Below are positions 1 to 4,961 of a stretch of 4,961 bases of DNA, in pieces. The position numbers were made by a program, and so were the translations under genes. Position 1 is the first letter of the stretch; each line of letters opens with the position of its first letter. The DNA is from a virus (Duplodnaviria > Heunggongvirae > Uroviricota > Caudoviricetes), in IMG/VR virus record IMGVR_UViG_2698536450_000012, positions 1 to 4,961 of that record; one strand, written 5' to 3'. The notes under the pieces were generated by a model that saw nothing but the letters and a program-made list of their open reading frames with translations, was not told the origin of the DNA and did no database searches.

Positions 1-84
1 AATGGCAGTGGCTACAGCGACGGCACCTTCTTCCTTTATTGCCTGTTCGTCCGGAATGGCGGCGCAAATAAAGACTTTACTCAT
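1..84 (-). CDS. Hypothetical protein, 5' end only (gene continues past the left edge of the window); N-terminus MSKVFICAAIPDEQAIKEEGAVAVATAI
   Basis: ATG at 84..82 on the minus strand, with a GAGGT Shine-Dalgarno (reverse complement of 93..97) 8 nt upstream. The frame is open to the window edge (28 codons). It is absent from the ORF track because no stop lies inside the window. Confidence 0.5.
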   Translation of the reverse strand, partial: MSKVFICAAIPDEQAIKEEGAVAVATAI

Positions 85-163
85 TTTGTTTTACCTCATT
101 ACAGATTTAAGGGTGAACAAATCCCTGCCATTGCTGGCATATAAAAATGAAACTGGATATTAA

Positions 164-367
164 TTACGGCGCTGTTTTTAATCCTGCCGGGATTTCGTTA
201 TTGTCCATGTGAATAACTTTATCGACCGGATAACAGTTGCCGGGAATTTTCTGTTCCGCTGCGGCAGCCATGCATTCTTTCATTGAGTTGTACATGCCGG
301 TGATTGCATCAAGCGACTCACCAGTATTGAGATGTACAGTCAGAATGAGTATGAATAATGTGTTCAT
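164..367 (-). CDS. Small hypothetical protein (67 aa from the ATG) with a hydrophobic N-terminal segment (MNTLFILILTVHLNTG), possibly a signal peptide or membrane anchor, and two Cys in the C-terminal part
   Basis: ORF track 164..373. The ATG at 367..365 overlaps the TGA stop of the upstream ORF (366..364) as ATGA, which suggests translational coupling. GGAGAG lies 5 nt upstream. The track start at 373 is a GTG two codons further up. Confidence 0.55.
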   Translation of the reverse strand: MNTLFILILTVHLNTGESLDAITGMYNSMKECMAAAAEQKIPGNCYPVDKVIHMDNNEIPAGLKTAP

Positions 368-552
368 CGCCACTCTCCGAAAATACCGAGTTTAAGAAGG
401 GCAATTCTGGAGAGTATGGAATTGTCATTCAGCAGGTAGGGTTCATATTTTCTCATATTGATTGCATCCTCGGTGAAATCCCTGTTACTGAGCAGAACAC
501 CAATATTAAAGCACCCGTCAGACGTATTAACGTTTGGTAGTGACGTTTCCAT
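364..552 (-). CDS. Small hypothetical protein, 62 aa, no recognisable domain
   Basis: ATG at 552..550 lies 10 nt downstream of the rha stop (565..563). A GAGGA Shine-Dalgarno overlaps the rha stop codon with a 7-nt spacer. Same strand and operon context as rha. Confidence 0.55.
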   Translation of the reverse strand: METSLPNVNTSDGCFNIGVLLSNRDFTEDAINMRKYEPYLLNDNSILSRIALLKLGIFGEWR

Positions 553-562
553 TATCGCGTCC

Positions 563-1120
563 TCAACAATGAATTTTTAGCAATTGCTCCACAGTCATAT
601 TTTTAATTGCGCTCCGGTTTACAAGAGTCCATCCTTGTTTCTCCAGATAAAACCGGAAGGTATCCAGGGTGCAGACCATTGCGCCGTCAGGAACGGTTTC
701 AGTGAATTTGATATTGCCGTGTTCGTCGAGACGGATAACTAGGGTGCGTCCGTCCCCGTGAATCATTTTGTCGGGAGACGGGGCGTTATTCTGGCGCAGT
801 TCTTCCTCCATGCGATCGAACTCAGCGATGTAGGCTTCTTTGAAAGTTGCGGCTTTTTTACCTGTGAACCCCATCACCAGGAAAACGAAGCCGTTTTTGG
901 TGATTTGGTACATGGGGCGTTTTTCGCCTTTGGCGTCGGTGTAGGTAACGGGCGTAAAATTGCGCTCGTTAAAATCTTCAGAGCATTCTAGCGTTTCAAT
1001 TTTGCGCAGAACGTCCTTGTGCATTTTGCGGAAGAACTCTGCAACCGCAACAGACGTAGTGACAGCGCGACCATTTTCGATGGTTACGTCAGGGTGAGAA
1101 AGGGTAGGGATAGTAGCCAT
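563..1120 (-). CDS. rha: Phage regulatory protein, Rha family (N-terminal Rha domain MATIPTLSHPDVTIENGRAVTTSVAVAEFFRKMHKDVLRKIETLE...KGEKRPMYQITKNGFVFLVMGFTGKKAATFKEAYIAEFDRMEEEL, plus a C-terminal domain of unknown function)
   Basis: Recognised from memory as the Rha (Phage_pRha) family. Start placed at the ATG at 1120..1118, which has an AAGAGG Shine-Dalgarno (reverse complement of 1129..1134) 8 nt upstream. The ORF track extends the frame to 1417, but that extension contains a terminator-like hairpin with a U-tract and has no domain-like sequence. Confidence 0.8.
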   Translation of the reverse strand: MATIPTLSHPDVTIENGRAVTTSVAVAEFFRKMHKDVLRKIETLECSEDFNERNFTPVTYTDAKGEKRPMYQITKNGFVFLVMGFTGKKAATFKEAYIAEFDRMEEELRQNNAPSPDKMIHGDGRTLVIRLDEHGNIKFTETVPDGAMVCTLDTFRFYLEKQGWTLVNRSAIKNMTVEQLLKIHC

Positions 1121-1150
1121 AATGGCAGCCTCTTGGTTGAGTATTAATAA

Positions 1151-1189
1151 CTCACCACCAAGGTTTTCCACGACCATAAGGGTGGTGAG
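1151..1189 (-). promoter_or_regulatory. Perfect 9-bp inverted repeat (CTCACCACC / GGTGGTGAG) with a 21-nt loop, in the rha 5' leader about 20 nt upstream of the Shine-Dalgarno
   Basis: Read directly: 1151..1159 is the reverse complement of 1181..1189. As RNA on the minus strand the loop contains GUGGAAAAC. Confidence 0.4.
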
Positions 1190-1288
1190 GCGTACAGGGG
1201 TGGAAATACCGGTCAACCAAGAATCCGGCCAGCCTTGCAGCTGCCCTGCACGCCCCACCATAATCTGAATGTGGCTGTGCTTGACGCA

Positions 1289-1312
1289 TAAAAAAACCGC
1301 CTGAGCGCGGTT
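1289..1312 (-). terminator. Candidate intrinsic terminator on the minus strand (stem aaccgc/gcgguu, 6-nt loop, then U7)
   Basis: On the plus strand an A-run (1290..1296) precedes the hairpin at 1295..1312, so on the minus strand the hairpin is followed by UUUUUUU. The stem is short (4 GC and 2 AU pairs), so strength is moderate. Confidence 0.5.
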
Positions 1313-1372
1313 ATGCGCTTGATTGAATTCCGGGTTTCCACGCCCGGCACCCGTTTTATGAGGTGCAGGTGC

Positions 1373-1401
1373 ACTATAATTCCACCCGTTCTGGTTTTCA
1401 A
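1373..1401 (-). promoter_or_regulatory. Candidate sigma70 promoter on the minus strand: -35 TTGAAA (1401..1396), 17-bp spacer, -10 TATAGT (1378..1373); predicted start near 1366
   Basis: Both hexamers match consensus at 5 of 6 positions with the optimal 17-bp spacer. It lies about 75 nt upstream of the terminator at 1289..1312. Confidence 0.4.
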
Positions 1402-1904
1402 TAGCTACATTCAACATTTTCTCTTACCTTTCATCACCGAAGTGAACTTTGTTGATGCGGTGCCTGGTGCCTCCAGGTGACGTTAACCAGTTAACAATTA
1501 ACGCCGGATACAGAGAATCCACCCATAACACTGTTTTTGGTTTTAACTGTTCCGCGTGCGCTGAGCCGCATTCACCGCATCACAAAATTCACTTTAAAAA
1601 GGGCGGCAGAGCAGCCACGGAGTAAAACTGATACTGCCAAACGTCACCAGAAAATTGATAACAGAGGGCGTTGCAGCGGGGTTGTCACTTAAGCGTATGG
1701 TCAACCTGACAACCCGGTGTCCTCAACGGGGAAGGAATAACCCCGCCATACTTACCGCCGCGCCATTTCGCGGAGTGCCACAACCGGAAGCGCACGGTCG
1801 ACGAAAATTTAACGACAGGCTATCTATGAACCAGCAACCTCGCCGTGCACTTTCGCGTTATGCTCTGACTTTTCAGAGAAATATCCTTTCAGTAAACTGT
1901 CAGT

Positions 1905-1954
1905 GCCGGATGTTCACCCGTGTCCGGCGCACGCACTCCACTTCACCCGTGGAG
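1905..1954. other. Two adjacent stem-loops with a shared loop motif TTCACCCGTG (plus strand) / CACGGGUGAA (minus-strand RNA)
   Basis: Hairpin A has stem 1905..1910 / 1923..1928 (gccgga/tccggc) and a 12-nt loop. Hairpin B has stem 1936..1941 / 1949..1954 (ctccac/gtggag) and a 7-nt loop. The 10-mer TTCACCCGTG occurs at 1913..1922 and 1942..1951. Confidence 0.45.
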
Positions 1955-1993
1955 AACTCCTTAATTACCAACCTTAGCTTCGTTGGTTAGCTA

Positions 1994-2212
1994 TTAACGC
2001 GGGTATGTAATCATTCTGGCAATGCTTAATGCCGCTGCTTTTTCCAGATTGGTGATATCCTGCTCCAGAGCGGACAGATTTTCAGCCTGCTTAGCCCTGG
2101 CTTCATTGGCCCATTTCAGGTCCTGCGCTGCCTTAATTTTCTGGTGCATCCACTCATAAAGTTCATCATCGGTATAGTCTGGCGCGATGATGACGGGTTC
2201 TCGTTTCTGCAT
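1994..2212 (-). CDS. Small hypothetical phage protein, 72 aa (MQKREPVIIAPDYTDDELYEWMHQKIKAAQDLKWANEARAKQAENLSALEQDITNLEKAAALSIARMITYPR)
   Basis: ATG at 2212..2210 with an AAGGAG Shine-Dalgarno 5 nt upstream. The sequence looks protein-like (charged, helical). Same orientation as the leftward early operon. Confidence 0.65.
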   Translation of the reverse strand: MQKREPVIIAPDYTDDELYEWMHQKIKAAQDLKWANEARAKQAENLSALEQDITNLEKAAALSIARMITYPR

Positions 2213-2283
2213 GTCGGCTCCTTGTGGTTAGCGTTGCCTGCTTTTAACCACGTCAGGCGAGGTGGTATCCTCTGAGGGGTCTG

Positions 2284-2640
2284 TTACTCGAGAGGAAATT
2301 GGTTATGAATACAATCAAGTTTTCTTGCCCAGAATGTGGCGGCGAAGTCTTTGACACATCCTTTAAACCGCATGGCTCTGACAGTTTCGCGGGAGCCATC
2401 TGCAAAAATTGTGGTCACCTTGTAACTGAAGATGAGTCCTCGCAGTTTGATGACGAAATCGTTGACAATATCTTCGGTGCACTCACCAGAGACTTTCTGA
2501 AGTAAAGGCGCATACCGCTTAGTTACCGCTCTGATAATTCTTACCTGTCCGGCAATGGCGCTGATATCAATATAAAGCGCCATCGCTGTTTCTTTGCTGA
2601 TCCCTGGATGCCTTCCATTCTGATGTTTGACTTCGCCCAC
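2284..2640 (-). CDS. Alternative call: 118-aa ORF immediately downstream of the leftward early promoter (GTG start), fully overlapping the zinc-ribbon ORF on the opposite strand
   Basis: GTG at 2640..2638 with an AGAGGA Shine-Dalgarno and a 7-nt spacer, about 70 nt downstream of the candidate leftward promoter. Against it: 5 of 9 Arg codons are AGA/AGG, there is no recognisable domain, and antisense frames in the same register often stay open by chance. Confidence 0.3.
   Translation of the reverse strand: MGEVKHQNGRHPGISKETAMALYIDISAIAGQVRIIRAVTKRYAPLLQKVSGECTEDIVNDFVIKLRGLIFSYKVTTIFADGSRETVRAMRFKGCVKDFAATFWARKLDCIHNQFPLE
2305..2505 (+). CDS. Small C4 zinc-ribbon protein, 66 aa (CPEC ... CKNC), with an acidic C-terminal tail (EDESSQFDDEIVD)
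   Basis: ATG at 2305 with an AGAGGA Shine-Dalgarno and an 8-nt spacer. Two CxxC pairs are 23 residues apart. Codon usage is ordinary. It is antisense to, and in the same codon register as, the minus ORF 2284..2640, so only one of the two may be real. Confidence 0.55.
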   Translation: MNTIKFSCPECGGEVFDTSFKPHGSDSFAGAICKNCGHLVTEDESSQFDDEIVDNIFGALTRDFLK

Positions 2641-2718
2641 TGAGAAATCCTCTGTTTCCCCTTAACGCCGGGGTAGCGGAACTAAGACCTGTCGCACCGT
2701 TGTGCTTTGATGGAATAC

Positions 2719-2747
2719 ATTGTTCTCTCTAGGTGAACAAAAGTCAA
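2719..2747 (-). promoter_or_regulatory. Candidate leftward early promoter (pL-like) on the minus strand: -35 TTGACT (2747..2742), 17-bp spacer, -10 AACAAT (2724..2719), overlapped by an operator-like inverted repeat TGTTC-N9-GAACA (2721..2739)
   Basis: Same hexamers, spacer length and embedded inverted repeat as the rightward promoter at 3249..3277. It sits immediately downstream of the repressor terminator. Confidence 0.5.
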
Positions 2748-2761
2748 CATGATGAATACGC

Positions 2762-2791
2762 AAAAAAAAAAAAAAACCGCCTTGCGGCGGT
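2762..2791 (-). terminator. Strong intrinsic terminator of the repressor transcript (stem accgcc/ggcggu, GCAA tetraloop, then U15)
   Basis: On the plus strand A15 (2762..2776) is followed by ccgcc ttgc ggcgg (2777..2790). On the minus strand this is a GC hairpin followed by 15 U, about 25 nt downstream of the repressor stop (2813). Confidence 0.8.
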
Positions 2792-2812
2792 ATGATTCTG
2801 TAAAATAAAGAA

Positions 2813-3202
2813 TTATTTTTGTCGTGTTATTGGGTCGACGTATTCTGAGTAAAATTCGGTCAGTTTTTGGAGTCGCATTTGAAAAGCTGCCAGCATATTT
2901 CTACGTTCTACAGGTGGCAGGTTTCTGTAAACATCAAGCAGGGCCTTCTCGTCATCATCAAGCGCCTCTCTATTTGTCTCTTCTTTCCCTGTCAGTAGCC
3001 AAGAAAGGGAAACGTTTGTGGCTTCTGCAATTTTGGCTGCGGAATCTTTACTGATTGTTCCTCTTTTTTTCCATGCGTTGACTGATGAACGACCTACACC
3101 AGCGATACGCGCTAAATCTGAACCACTTAAATGATGCTGTTGAGAGATCGTATCTAACCTTTCTGCTAGCGGGGTGTCGTATTGCTTTTTTCTCATGTCC
3201 AT
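2813..3202 (-). CDS. Prophage repressor, XRE-type helix-turn-helix (cI / RacR / DicA-like), 129 aa
   Basis: Helix-turn-helix motif LSGSDLARIAGVGRSSVNAWKKRG. Divergent from the Cro-like gene. A consensus TATAAT ends 7 nt before the ATG, which predicts a leaderless transcript with no Shine-Dalgarno, as for lambda cI from pRM. Confidence 0.85.
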   Translation of the reverse strand: MDMRKKQYDTPLAERLDTISQQHHLSGSDLARIAGVGRSSVNAWKKRGTISKDSAAKIAEATNVSLSWLLTGKEETNREALDDDEKALLDVYRNLPPVERRNMLAAFQMRLQKLTEFYSEYVDPITRQK

Positions 3203-3208
3203 TTGGCA

Positions 3209-3236
3209 ATTATAACCGTTCAGTGAACACTAACAA
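3209..3236 (-). promoter_or_regulatory. Candidate repressor-maintenance promoter (pRM-like) on the minus strand: -35 TTGTTA (3236..3231), 16-bp spacer, -10 TATAAT (3214..3209); the spacer contains the palindrome GTTCAgTGAAC (3218..3228)
   Basis: Hexamers and spacing read directly. The predicted transcription start coincides with the A of the repressor ATG at 3202. Confidence 0.5.
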
Positions 3237-3248
3237 TTCCTCGAGGTG

Positions 3249-3277
3249 TTGACTTGTGTTCGTTTTAAGTGAACAAT
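3249..3277 (+). promoter_or_regulatory. Candidate rightward early promoter (pR-like): -35 TTGACT (3249..3254), 17-bp spacer, -10 AACAAT (3272..3277), overlapped by an operator-like inverted repeat TGTTC-N9-GAACA (3257..3275)
   Basis: Back-to-back with the pRM-like promoter. A GGAGG Shine-Dalgarno (3297..3301) precedes the ATG at 3306. Confidence 0.5.
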
Positions 3278-3305
3278 CGTTGTGGTTAGTTGAACTGGAG
3301 GTTGT

Positions 3306-3581
3306 ATGACAGCATTGGACAAAGCAATAAAGATTGCTGGTGGTATTCGTCCGCTAGGGCGTGCAATAGGGGCTTGGCCATCTCAAATACACAAATGGGC
3401 AAATGAATACAATGGTCGAGTGCCGACGGGAGAACGGGTTCGTCAAATTTATATTGCAACTGGGGTTACTCCTCATGAATTGCGACCAGATTTATACCCG
3501 AATCCAACTGACGGGTTGCCTGCTGGAGATAAGGCTAACACACCAAATACACCGGAGTTGATTCATGAAAATCAAGCATGA
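3306..3581 (+). CDS. ydaS: Cro-like DNA-binding regulator, YdaS family, 91 aa
   Basis: Divergent from the repressor, with a GGAGG Shine-Dalgarno. The motif GVTPHELRPDLYP is typical of the YdaS / Cro-type family as recalled from memory. Confidence 0.8.
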   Translation: MTALDKAIKIAGGIRPLGRAIGAWPSQIHKWANEYNGRVPTGERVRQIYIATGVTPHELRPDLYPNPTDGLPAGDKANTPNTPELIHENQA

Positions 3582-3990
3582 ACACATCCGCATGGCGATG
3601 AATGCCTGGGCGCGTCCTGATGGCGAAAAAGTTCCAGCAGCTGGAATAACCCAGGCTTATTTTGAGTTGGGTATGACGTTTCCTGAACTGTATGACGACA
3701 GCCATCCGGAAGCCCTGGCTCGCAATACACAGAAAATTTTCCGCTGGGTAGAGAAAGACACCCCTGATGCAGTTGAAAAAATTCAGGCGTTGTTACCAGC
3801 GATCGAAAAGGCAATGCCACCTTTGCTGGTGGCCAGAATGCGCAGCCACAGTTCAGCTTATTTTCGGGAGCTGGTGGAGACGCGGGAGCGACTGGTGAGA
3901 GACGCTGATGATTTTGTCGCAGTGGCAATCGCCGGTTTCAATCAGATGAACCGTGGTGGCCCGGCAGGAAATGCTGTGGCAGTACATTGA
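3565..3990 (+). CDS. ydaT: YdaT-family regulator, 141 aa, in the cII-equivalent position
   Basis: The N-terminus MKIKHEHI and the C-terminal ...AVAVH match what I recall of Rac YdaT. The start overlaps the ydaS-like stop by 17 nt. GGAG lies 8 nt upstream. Confidence 0.8.
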   Translation: MKIKHEHIRMAMNAWARPDGEKVPAAGITQAYFELGMTFPELYDDSHPEALARNTQKIFRWVEKDTPDAVEKIQALLPAIEKAMPPLLVARMRSHSSAYFRELVETRERLVRDADDFVAVAIAGFNQMNRGGPAGNAVAVH

Positions 3991-4061
3991 CTGACAATAG
4001 CCATATCGAATCGCTTCCGGCAACTCGTGAGTAAAATGATTCGGTATCAGAAGAGGTGAGT

Positions 4062-4961
4062 ATGGCTAACGCCTGGCTCAGATTATGGCATGACATGCCA
4101 AATGACCCTAAGTGGCGAACAATTGCCAGGGTGTCAGGGCAGCCAATTGCAACAGTGATGGCAGTGTATATCCACCTCCTGGTGAGCGCGTCACGAAATG
4201 TCACGCGAGGTCACATTGATGTCACGACAGAAGATTTGGCAAGTGCGCTCGACGTGACAGAAGAGGTAATTGATTCAATTTTGCAGACGATGCAGGGGCG
4301 GGTACTTGATGGTGATTTAATCACTGGATGGGAAAAACGCCAGGTGCTGAAAGAGGACAACGGCAATATTTCGCAAACCGCAAAATCTCCTGCAGAGCGC
4401 AAGAGGGCGCAGCGAGAGAGGGAAAGAAAGCGGGAACAAAATGGCGATTGTCACGGCGCGTCACGAAATGTCACGCACATGTCACGACGAGTCACGACAG
4501 ATAAAGATACAGATAAAGATACAGATCAAGAAGATCAAAACACTATGGTCCATGGCGTAAAAAACGCCACGAACCAGGCAGGGGATGTTCAGACCGTCAA
4601 TCCTGGTCAGCCAGCAGGCACGACACCGGAAGCCGATTCAGCGTATGCGCTGAAAGCCGATTCGGGCGCTGTGCAGCAGGTGATGACCGCAAGGCCGGAG
4701 CAATCACACCAACTGCAGCAGCCTGAAGCCGATTCCGCCATTCAGCGGGAAGCCGATCGGGTAGTCCCGGAAAGCACCGGGCAGTCTGTGGGACGAGTGG
4801 ATTATCCGGATGTGTTCGAACAGGTCTGGCGGGAATACCCGTTGCGTGCCGGGGCAAACCCGAAGAAATCCGCTTTCAGTGCCTGGAAGGCCAGATTGCG
4901 CGAGGGGGTGCCACCAGAGACCATGCTGGATGGTGTGAGGCGTTACGCGAGATACCTGGCG
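4062..4961 (+). CDS. Phage replication initiation / replisome-organizer-type protein, 3' end outside the window (300 codons open to the edge); YdaU / lambda-O-equivalent position; family assignment unverified
   Basis: ATG at 4062 with an AGAGGTGA Shine-Dalgarno. Translated by hand with no stop to position 4961 (MANAWLRLWHDMPNDPKWRTIARVSGQPIATVMAVYIHLL...). Two iteron clusters lie inside the gene. It is absent from the ORF track because it has no stop. Confidence 0.8.
   Translation, partial: MANAWLRLWHDMPNDPKWRTIARVSGQPIATVMAVYIHLLVSASRNVTRGHIDVTTEDLASALDVTEEVIDSILQTMQGRVLDGDLITGWEKRQVLKEDNGNISQTAKSPAERKRAQRERERKREQNGDCHGASRNVTHMSRRVTTDKDTDKDTDQEDQNTMVHGVKNATNQAGDVQTVNPGQPAGTTPEADSAYALKADSGAVQQVMTARPEQSHQLQQPEADSAIQREADRVVPESTGQSVGRVDYPDVFEQVWREYPLRAGANPKKSAFSAWKARLREGVPPETMLDGVRRYARYLA
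4190..4230. repeat. Iteron cluster 1: four GTCACG/GTCACA repeats at 10-11 bp spacing (4190, 4200, 4210, 4221)
   Basis: Read directly: gtcacgaaat gtcacgcgag gtcacattgat gtcacgacag. The spacing is helically phased. Confidence 0.6.
4450..4541. repeat. Iteron cluster 2: five GTCACG repeats (4450, 4460, 4470, 4481, 4491), then an A-rich tract with a tandem 12-bp repeat CAGATAAAGATA x2 (4498..4521) and two GATC sites (4524, 4533); candidate phage origin of replication
   Basis: Read directly. The 18-mer GCGTCACGAAATGTCACG is shared between the two clusters (4187..4204 and 4457..4474). Iterons followed by an AT-rich segment inside the initiator gene mirror the lambda origin within gene O. Confidence 0.6.

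Follow-up and report, generated by a model that had tools for sequence, protein, structure and literature searches.

The open-reading-frame-free gap in a lambdoid prophage early operon is very probably the untranslated dicF core of a Qin-type dicBF operon

What occupies a long gap between the open reading frames (ORFs) of a leftward lambdoid prophage operon is the question addressed here. The DNA analysed (the window) is the whole 4,961-nucleotide stretch at positions 1 to 4,961 of the Caudoviricetes virus record IMGVR_UViG_2698536450_000012. Its context is that of a lambdoid prophage immunity and early-left region, with a cI/DicA-like repressor gene on the minus strand (2813–3202), cro-like, cII-like and replication genes on the plus strand and the leftward operon opposite; features given below lie on the minus strand unless the plus strand is indicated. 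The gap (1418–1993) is flanked, as stated in a preliminary description made from the sequence alone, by a 72-residue ORF, which is YdfC, and a 284-residue 'Rha' ORF (563–1417). The gap very probably represents the core untranslated region of a dicBF operon of the Qin type, whose RNA would be cut up to yield small RNAs (sRNAs). Since the locus corresponds to the documented dicF untranslated region (UTR) of Escherichia coli K-12, the feature is a known one; the RNA function proposed in the preliminary description is correct, and the novelty implied there falls away.

DicF and the identity of the gap

The segment is ∼97% identical to the ydfC–dicF–dicB leader of the E. coli K-12 prophage Qin, with pairwise alignment showing near-identity from the ydfC start codon to window position ∼1453. 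The ydfC gene (1994–2212, 72 residues) is the final protein gene ahead of the untranslated region and is assigned from near-identity to K-12 ydfC, from PGAP annotation in relatives and from phrog_1744. At 341 nt, the spacer between ydfC and dicF is one nucleotide longer than that of K-12 (340 nt). Matches to the region are present in 4760 of 5426 complete E. coli genomes, and the record of phage Tritos carries the annotation 'DicF antisense sRNA' at the corresponding place. DicF neighbourhoods taken from about 130 loci were compared with the window; the block 1862–1443 is present in all DicF loci examined at 86–98% identity, the upstream joint being variable, and the ORF-free sequence is retained at 86–98% identity in ∼100 distinct relatives and K-12. 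A one-genome-per-species scan for the DicF core returned only ten loci, some of them in contaminated metagenome-assembled genomes, and gained little taxonomic breadth.

The similarities to the K-12 Qin dicBF operon (RF00039; Faubladier et al., 1990; Balasubramanian et al., 2016; Ragunathan et al., 2023) include the order ydfC, ∼340-nt spacer, dicF, structured leader and dicB, together with an upstream cI/Cro-like immunity region of the DicA/DicC type. The window differs from K-12 in having other small ORFs in place of ydfA and ydfB, an ∼865-bp IsrK–orf45/C4–Rha cassette between the leader and dicB, and one A·C mismatch in the DicF terminator stem.

A permissive Rfam scan of the window produced four minus-strand families: DicF, STnc100 (below threshold), IsrK and C4. 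The DicF match (RF00039; 1652–1601, 67.3 bits, gathering threshold 48, E 1e-14) covers model positions 1–52 of 52, and with the terminator hairpin and a U-tract extending to about 1596 the sRNA occupies 1596–1652. It is identical to K-12 dicF at 50 of 52 bases, both differences being in the terminator hairpin region, and has the expected architecture of a single-stranded 5′ seed followed by a Rho-independent terminator (1618–1603, containing the A·C mismatch) and UUUUU. Its context is that of dicF, downstream of ydfC and upstream of dicB (displaced by the cassette), under a DicA/cI-like repressor. The preliminary description had named a structured noncoding RNA, processing sites or a long UTR as candidates and an Rfam search as a check. 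These expectations are borne out by the above-threshold DicF match, by the processed UTR documented in K-12 and by two covariation-supported folds described below.

In K-12, the transcript from dicBp yields DicF species of 190 nt (RNase III) and 53 nt (RNase E), and no internal promoter was found (PMC10448788). A large fraction of K-12 transcripts stop at DicF, and the downstream toxic genes need readthrough; readthrough transcripts are cut by RNase III ∼20 nt past the DicF terminator, a cut that yields DicF in a 72-nt form and releases the message beyond it. K-12 DicF pairs via Hfq with the ftsZ, pykA, xylR and manX mRNAs. Two transcriptome-wide RNase III mapping studies only cite DicF and give no cleavage coordinates for it.

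By homology with K-12, a leftward polycistronic RNA would start from a repressor-controlled PL-like promoter, cross the gap and then be cut into small RNAs. A consensus scan identified a PL/dicBp-like promoter (TTGACT-17-AACAAT; 2719–2747) at the same position as K-12 dicBp, and this is presumed to be the start of the leftward operon transcript. RNase III cleavage upstream of DicF would generate the 190-nt species, and RNase E cleavage in an A/U-rich single-stranded linker (CGCCCUCUGUUAUCAAU; 1653–1669), whose 3′ end marks the start of DicF and the region of RNase E cleavage, would generate the 53-nt DicF. The DicF hairpin would act as an intrinsic terminator, and RNA reading through it would be recut by RNase III to give the 72-nt DicF.

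The region of the RNase E site and the DicF 5′ end (1645–1656; AAUUUUCUGGUG) is perfectly complementary to 12 nt within ydfC (2135–2146; RNA CACCAGAAAAUU; inverted repeat I4), ∼490 nt upstream on the same transcript. This complementarity is kept in 43 of 43 distinct ydfC–dicF relatives, with A-U or G·U at one position, and an exact 12-mer complementarity is obtained in 5e-5 of shuffles. The pairing could sequester the seed in the precursor, mediate regulation of ydfC by DicF or provide another RNase III duplex.

Two pseudoknotted domains flanking DicF

Upstream of the A/U-rich linker lies module B, a 115-nt domain (1670–1784) delineated in a covariation alignment (A4) of 85 distinct sequences. 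It comprises a closing helix (1784–1777/1677–1670), three hairpins (1773–1758; 1746–1727, with counted stem pairs 1745–1741/1731–1727; and 1715–1679) and a pseudoknot between GUAUGG (1751–1746) and CCAUAC (1700–1695), and is predicted to form the 5′ body of the 190-nt pre-DicF. The proposed pairs are formed in 94.5% of the alignment cells, compared with 34–57% when the partner is slid, and 57 cells carry double changes, compared with 15.5 in shuffles (0 of 500). One pseudoknot pair is U-A in 61 sequences, C-G in 15 and U·G in 9, and in the second hairpin complementarity is preserved between lineages despite wholly different sequence. Rfam searches at permissive E-values over 1400–1900 returned nothing credible for module B (a resemblance to a tRNA-like family, E 5.1, is non-significant), and an ARAGORN scan of the window for tRNA and tmRNA found no gene.

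Positions ∼1784–1662 match sequences in Stx2c phages, cdtI, 2H10, Salmonella phage F1055 and the ban-operon leader of P1 and P7; the P1 record's own note at the match reads 'dicF-like region'. In every context found, a terminator hairpin follows ∼10–40 nt past module B, the intervening heads being canonical DicF, variants of it or unrelated sequences. In P1, cdtI, the Stx2c phages and F1055, module B is situated shortly behind an early promoter. Phage POCJ13 has a DicF-like RNA and the downstream domain (module D, described below), with module B reduced to a 3′ remnant. The arrangement suggests a phage RNA family in which a constant 5′ domain is combined with an exchangeable seed-plus-terminator. 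The leading guess for module B is accordingly a carrier or biogenesis domain common to phage sRNAs with interchangeable seed-plus-terminator ends, which may also affect readthrough of the terminator behind it.

On its upstream side, the closing helix of module B is abutted by a hairpin, S0 (1785–1855), which was identified from pair counts and consists of a 5′ strand (1855–1843), a loop (1842–1798) and a 3′ strand (1797–1785) forming a stem of ∼13 bp with one mismatch. Over 97 distinct sequences the loop is variable and the stem changes are of the wobble type only. For a 190-nt RNA with its 3′ end at the DicF U-tract, the calculated 5′ end is at about 1786–1790, in the 3′ strand of S0, and S0 is therefore assigned as the likely RNase III site making the 5′ end of the 190-nt pre-DicF.

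Module D (1440–1594) is a 155-nt pseudoknotted leader that starts six bases past the DicF U-tract and was identified from its fold z-score (−4.8 versus shuffles), a covariation alignment (A5) and a match to STnc100. A 22-bp closing helix (1594–1573/1462–1440) is accompanied by hairpins at 1569–1554 (invariant), 1505–1479 (loop UUGUUAACUGG) and 1477–1463 and by a pseudoknot pairing CAGUUAA (1549–1543) with UUAACUG (1494–1488). Scans for module D gave 173 distinct sequences, with 49 diverse representatives forming alignment A5, in which 93% of cells are paired versus 32–39% when slid. Changes on both sides occur in 25 of 50 pairs, and on all five measures the observed value is unmatched by any of 500 shuffles. 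The pseudoknot is found in three covarying versions (CAGUUAA/UUAACUG, UGGUUAU/AUAACCA and UGGUUAA/UUAACCA). Covariation analysis of the segment, a check named in the preliminary description, thus recovered compensatory base changes in both modules.

The expected 3′ end of the 72-nt DicF (∼1581) falls within the closing helix of module D, so this helix is very probably the second RNase III site. The gene directly following module D homologues is dicB in K-12, terB/tciA in P1, P7 and D6, kil in Shigella phage POCJ13 and an ORF in a Klebsiella phage. More generally, the next start codon lies at a nearly constant +146 to +173 from the GGUGAAUGCG motif. The gene it opens is small and often toxic; its product is DicB, Kil (phrog_294), TerB/TciA or one of various small or membrane proteins, and in many cases DicF is absent upstream. 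The leading guess for module D is a cis-acting leader that would couple RNase III processing to the expression of the following gene.

The STnc100 match in the window (1589–1448) scores 36.6 bits, and module D homologues in K-12, P1, P7, D6, POCJ13 and Klebsiella phage Kp4865-4 score 28–43 bits, all below the gathering threshold of 47. Module D has the STnc100 consensus architecture, and the covariation analysis independently recovers the same helices. Features shared with STnc100 (RF02076) and the related PasD prophage sRNAs span model positions 22–154 and include the closing helix, GGUGAAU, a hairpin loop containing UUAAC, and CACCGGGAGGCACCCGGCACC; like module D, STnc100 is prophage-borne and often found beside TerB genes. 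Module D differs from STnc100 in the sequence of its first hairpin and in that it would act here as an intercistronic leader and RNase III site, not as an independent sRNA gene. STnc100 has been described as a prophage RNA that is related to the PasD sRNAs and whose function is unclear.

Both modules are also carried by the ban operon of P1 (L135: 2990–3154 and 4342–4461) and P7 (L136: 1568–1705 and 3001–3116). There, module B with a terminator hairpin is located behind Pban, tRNA genes lie between the modules and module D immediately precedes tciA/terB. The order of the modules matches that in Qin dicBF, which indicates an operon design apparently common to unrelated phage types. It is conceivable, and is put forward only tentatively, that DicF is one allele of a family with the layout [module B]–[variable seed + terminator]–[module D]–[small toxic gene], in which module B, as a previously undescribed pseudoknotted RNA class, has an activity of its own and module D, as a cis-regulatory leader, gates septation inhibitors and other toxic peptides via RNase III; the ydfC pairing could add a self-regulatory loop. 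Candidates for the module B activity in such a family are control of terminator readthrough, or a carrier or biogenesis domain on to which interchangeable sRNA 'heads' are loaded.

The rediscovery of dicF is mainly an annotation correction, in that the gap does have contents. What goes beyond routine is the pair of pseudoknotted domains beside DicF, of which one has no Rfam family and the other is a divergent relative of STnc100, together with the conserved 12-nt complementarity between ydfC and DicF; the functions attached to them are putative. The flanks of one of the oldest known bacterial sRNAs thus consist of two independently mobile, covariation-supported pseudoknotted domains that are common to P1/P7, Stx, Klebsiella and Salmonella phages and always lie beside terminators and small toxic genes. 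If the modules do control readthrough or processing-coupled expression, this would explain how prophage cell-division inhibitors are silent yet inducible, and would provide a function for the STnc100 family, the role of which is unclear in the literature.

Alternative readings of the gap and of module B

The preliminary description had reported stops in all minus-strand frames of the gap, and this is confirmed: 1418–1993 contains 31 minus-strand stop codons (9, 9 and 13 per frame), and the longest start-initiated minus-strand ORF has 36 codons. The ORF list places three minus-strand ORFs, and no others, inside the gap (1424–1531, 35 residues; 1594–1704, 36 residues; 1685–1795, 36 residues). 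The gap had also been called unusually long. It is real, but its length as a statistic is only mildly unusual, as the longest one-strand ORF has no more than 36 codons in 5.9% of 2000 mononucleotide shuffles.

Three rival readings concern the gap itself. A decayed protein-coding gene left in the operon, one of the possibilities raised in the preliminary description, might be seen in the PGAP 'partial DicB, missing C-terminus' pseudogene at ∼1447–1530 in close relatives (2848–2931 in L001–L003), or in a 106-residue ORF between ydfC and dicF in strain STEC388. The former, however, is an in-frame GTG extension of the dicB ORF across module D, of 97 codons in relatives and 35 here; it overlies a covariation-supported RNA fold, and the DicB domain itself is intact at 364–552, so that the RefSeq 'DicB, incomplete' pseudogene is probably an annotation artefact. 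The STEC388 ORF belongs to an insertion and has no tblastn match in the window. The same ORF-free sequence is present in K-12 and in ∼100 distinct relatives. No intact homologous protein gene, the presence of which had been named beforehand as counting against an RNA function, was found here in relatives, and ORFs annotated at this place in other phages are in different frames; a decayed gene is therefore extremely improbable.

The plus-strand ORF at 1655–1990 (111 residues) has, as described previously, a TTG start, no AGGAGG-like motif within 15 nt upstream and a high arginine content (16 of 111, 14%). It is the sole plus-strand ORF over the gap only if at least 60 residues are required; two shorter ones, at 1449–1625 (58 residues) and 1537–1692 (51 residues), also overlap it. 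That this ORF, or an ATG-initiated 55-residue version (1826–1990), encodes a real antisense small protein is very improbable. In strain THO-006, RefSeq places a 55-residue hypothetical protein (WP_001331716.1) here, and cdtI and F1055 have annotated ORFs on that strand over module B, but the latter match the window in other frames and in short pieces only. The ORF has no Pfam match, and the longest open stretch on this strand, of 130 codons, is shortened to at most 93 codons in 19 of the 43 distinct relatives. Third positions are not in excess among the variable sites (8/16/13 and 20/25/24), a test that is flat for ydfC too and so has little power. Neutral filler with no function beyond carrying the 52-nt DicF, the remaining reading, would fit the first ∼130 nt past ydfC (1863–1993), which are replaceable, differ among relatives and may still be filler. 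For the segment as a whole it is extremely unlikely, as 1862–1443 is kept in all DicF loci examined, parts of it are found independently in P1, P7, D6, Stx phages and Klebsiella and Salmonella phages, and compensatory changes maintain its base pairing. The 'partial DicB' pseudogene, the 55-residue hypothetical protein and the 284-residue 'Rha' or 'Ash' proteins annotated in relatives are probably translations of structured RNA.

For module B, a put-like processive antiterminator, or an attenuator or riboswitch, could decide between stopping at the DicF terminator and reading through into dicB/rha. The put RNAs of HK022 are V-shaped elements of two stem-loops that bind the β′ zinc-binding domain and suppress termination. 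As structured cis-acting RNAs behind an early promoter and ahead of terminators, putL and putR occupy the place that module B has in P1, cdtI and the Stx2c phages. A terminator hairpin after module B in every context, the nutL/putL-like position (which F1055 shares), a complex pseudoknotted fold under selection and toxic downstream genes that need readthrough would all be in keeping with antitermination. However, the HK022 put elements, with their two stem-loops, are ∼70 nt long, against 115 nt and a pseudoknotted fold of four helices in module B, and the two were found to share no sequence similarity. Between module B and the terminator lie about 30 nt of variable sequence, which leaves no alternative pairing evident; in K-12 much transcription does end at DicF, and POCJ13 keeps a DicF-like RNA and module D with only the 3′ remnant of module B. 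Antitermination or attenuation by module B is accordingly considered unlikely. As an HK022 put RNA proper, module B was rejected for its mismatched architecture (closing helix, three hairpins, pseudoknot, 115 nt), and the likeness to put may be taken as a functional analogy only.

Several observations weigh against the identification of the gap as a processed dicBF UTR with two structured modules, or against parts of it. The A·C mismatch in the DicF terminator stem and a score 9 bits under that of the K-12 copy mean that termination efficiency may differ here. What is said of this prophage's transcription, promoter and RNase III and RNase E sites is carried over from K-12 by homology. The assignment of S0 to RNase III rests on length arithmetic, since its stem shows no double compensations. 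Module B covariation derives largely from few lineages, mainly the P1 group, and so reflects few independent events. The seemingly invariant loops partly served as search patterns, which inflates their apparent conservation. Module D remains below threshold for STnc100 (36.6 versus 47).

The inserted cassette and neighbouring features

Most relatives jump from ∼1443 to 577, in the dicB ribosome-binding region, and the ∼865 bp between these points in the window (578–1439) represent an inserted cassette. Such an insert is also carried by about 1% of E. coli genomes, at least 80% of the query being covered in 59 genomes. A promoter scan gave a promoter-like site for IsrK at 1401–1373, followed by IsrK with its terminator (1366–1290; RF01394, 69.2 bits, threshold 50), a 45-codon orf45 homologue (1289–1152) overlapping a C4-like antisense RNA (1265–1178; RF01695, 78 bits, threshold 45) and a Rha/AnrP-like coding sequence that starts at ATG 1119 and stops at 563. 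As in the known IsrK/C4 modules, a promoter is followed by the IsrK terminator, then by orf45/C4 and lastly by the antirepressor gene. In the 284-residue ORF the Pfam Rha domain starts at residue 120, and AAGAGG precedes ATG 1119, where the real Rha protein probably begins. Beyond the cassette, dicB, which in most relatives comes immediately after module D, is intact (364–552, 62 residues; Pfam DicB, E 1e-32), and homology to the K-12 leader resumes at 577.

Because the cassette was inserted between module D and dicB, the gap seems to run into a 'rha leader'. The actual non-coding stretch is longer than the reported gap, extending from 1993 to about 1120 (less the orf45 homologue at 1152–1289), since IsrK and the C4-like RNA lie under the 'Rha' ORF, within its first ∼99 codons. 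Pfam 'Phage_ASH' (PF10554) matches residues 14–109 of the same ORF (window 1120–1417), a translation over the IsrK terminator, orf45 and the C4-like RNA, and RefSeq relatives are named either 'Rha family' or 'ash family protein'. The long 284-residue ORF, and possibly the Phage_ASH family too, may therefore be a translation of conserved RNA.

The closest known counterparts are Gifsy-1 isrK–orf45–anrP, whose layout the cassette matches, and the P1/P7 immI module c4–icd–ant; in keeping with these, the 'rha leader' combines IsrK and C4, a 45-codon ORF and a Rha-type antirepressor-like gene in the same order, with its own promoter and a leaky terminator. Unlike those modules, the cassette here sits in a dicBF operon, outside the reported gap, and there is no antQ in the window. 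At its edges the cassette carries an imperfect direct repeat of the end of the module D 3′ arm (ACAAAGUUCACUU at the upstream joint, 1440–1452, and AAAAAUUCAUUG at the downstream joint, 566–578), which suggests that cassettes could be exchanged via recombination at this leader.

At the other end of the untranslated region, a variable linker past the ydfC stop (1856–1993) was delimited from homology breakpoints and a fold and motif survey; it contains local hairpins, two of them with ACGGGUGAR loops. Relatives have their upstream homology joint at 2212, 1973, 1951, 1933, 1876 or 1862, and because of this variation 1863–1993 is regarded as a replaceable hairpin linker. In STEC388, the insertion beside the ydfC stop comprises about 590 bp with the 106-residue ORF. 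The two neighbouring hairpins at 1905–1957 share a loop motif, ACGGGUGAA, which reads GGGUGAG in most relatives. In one relative (L092) the DNA between these loop repeats carries a deletion, and in other relatives the first hairpin is replaced; the repeats may be protein-binding or recombination-prone. As boxB-like protein sites the GGGUGAR-loop hairpins were rejected, being non-conserved, with variants in most relatives and one deletion between them.

Upstream of the PL-like promoter and immediately downstream of the cI/DicA-like gene lies a terminator (2776–2791). Here a run of 15 A adjoins a strong GC hairpin (ACCGCCGCAAGGCGGT; 2761–2791), which in the minus-strand reading is a terminator with a long U-tract. 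In place of K-12 ydfA and ydfB, the window has two overlapping antisense ORFs, both with family matches. The minus-strand ORF (2284–2640) shows a strong match to phrog_21318 over residues 20–118 (220 bits); the plus-strand ORF (2299–2505) would encode a 68-residue zinc-ribbon protein that is annotated in RefSeq as 'ECs_2282 family' and has a weak phrog_4852 match. The O-like replication gene contains clusters of GTCACG-type repeats (tgtcacg, ggtcaca and gtcacga) at 4187–4230, 4450–4497 and 4499–4540, as well as a GATAAAGATACA tandem with an A-rich tract, and these look like the origin iterons and AT-rich region of lambdoid ori sites.

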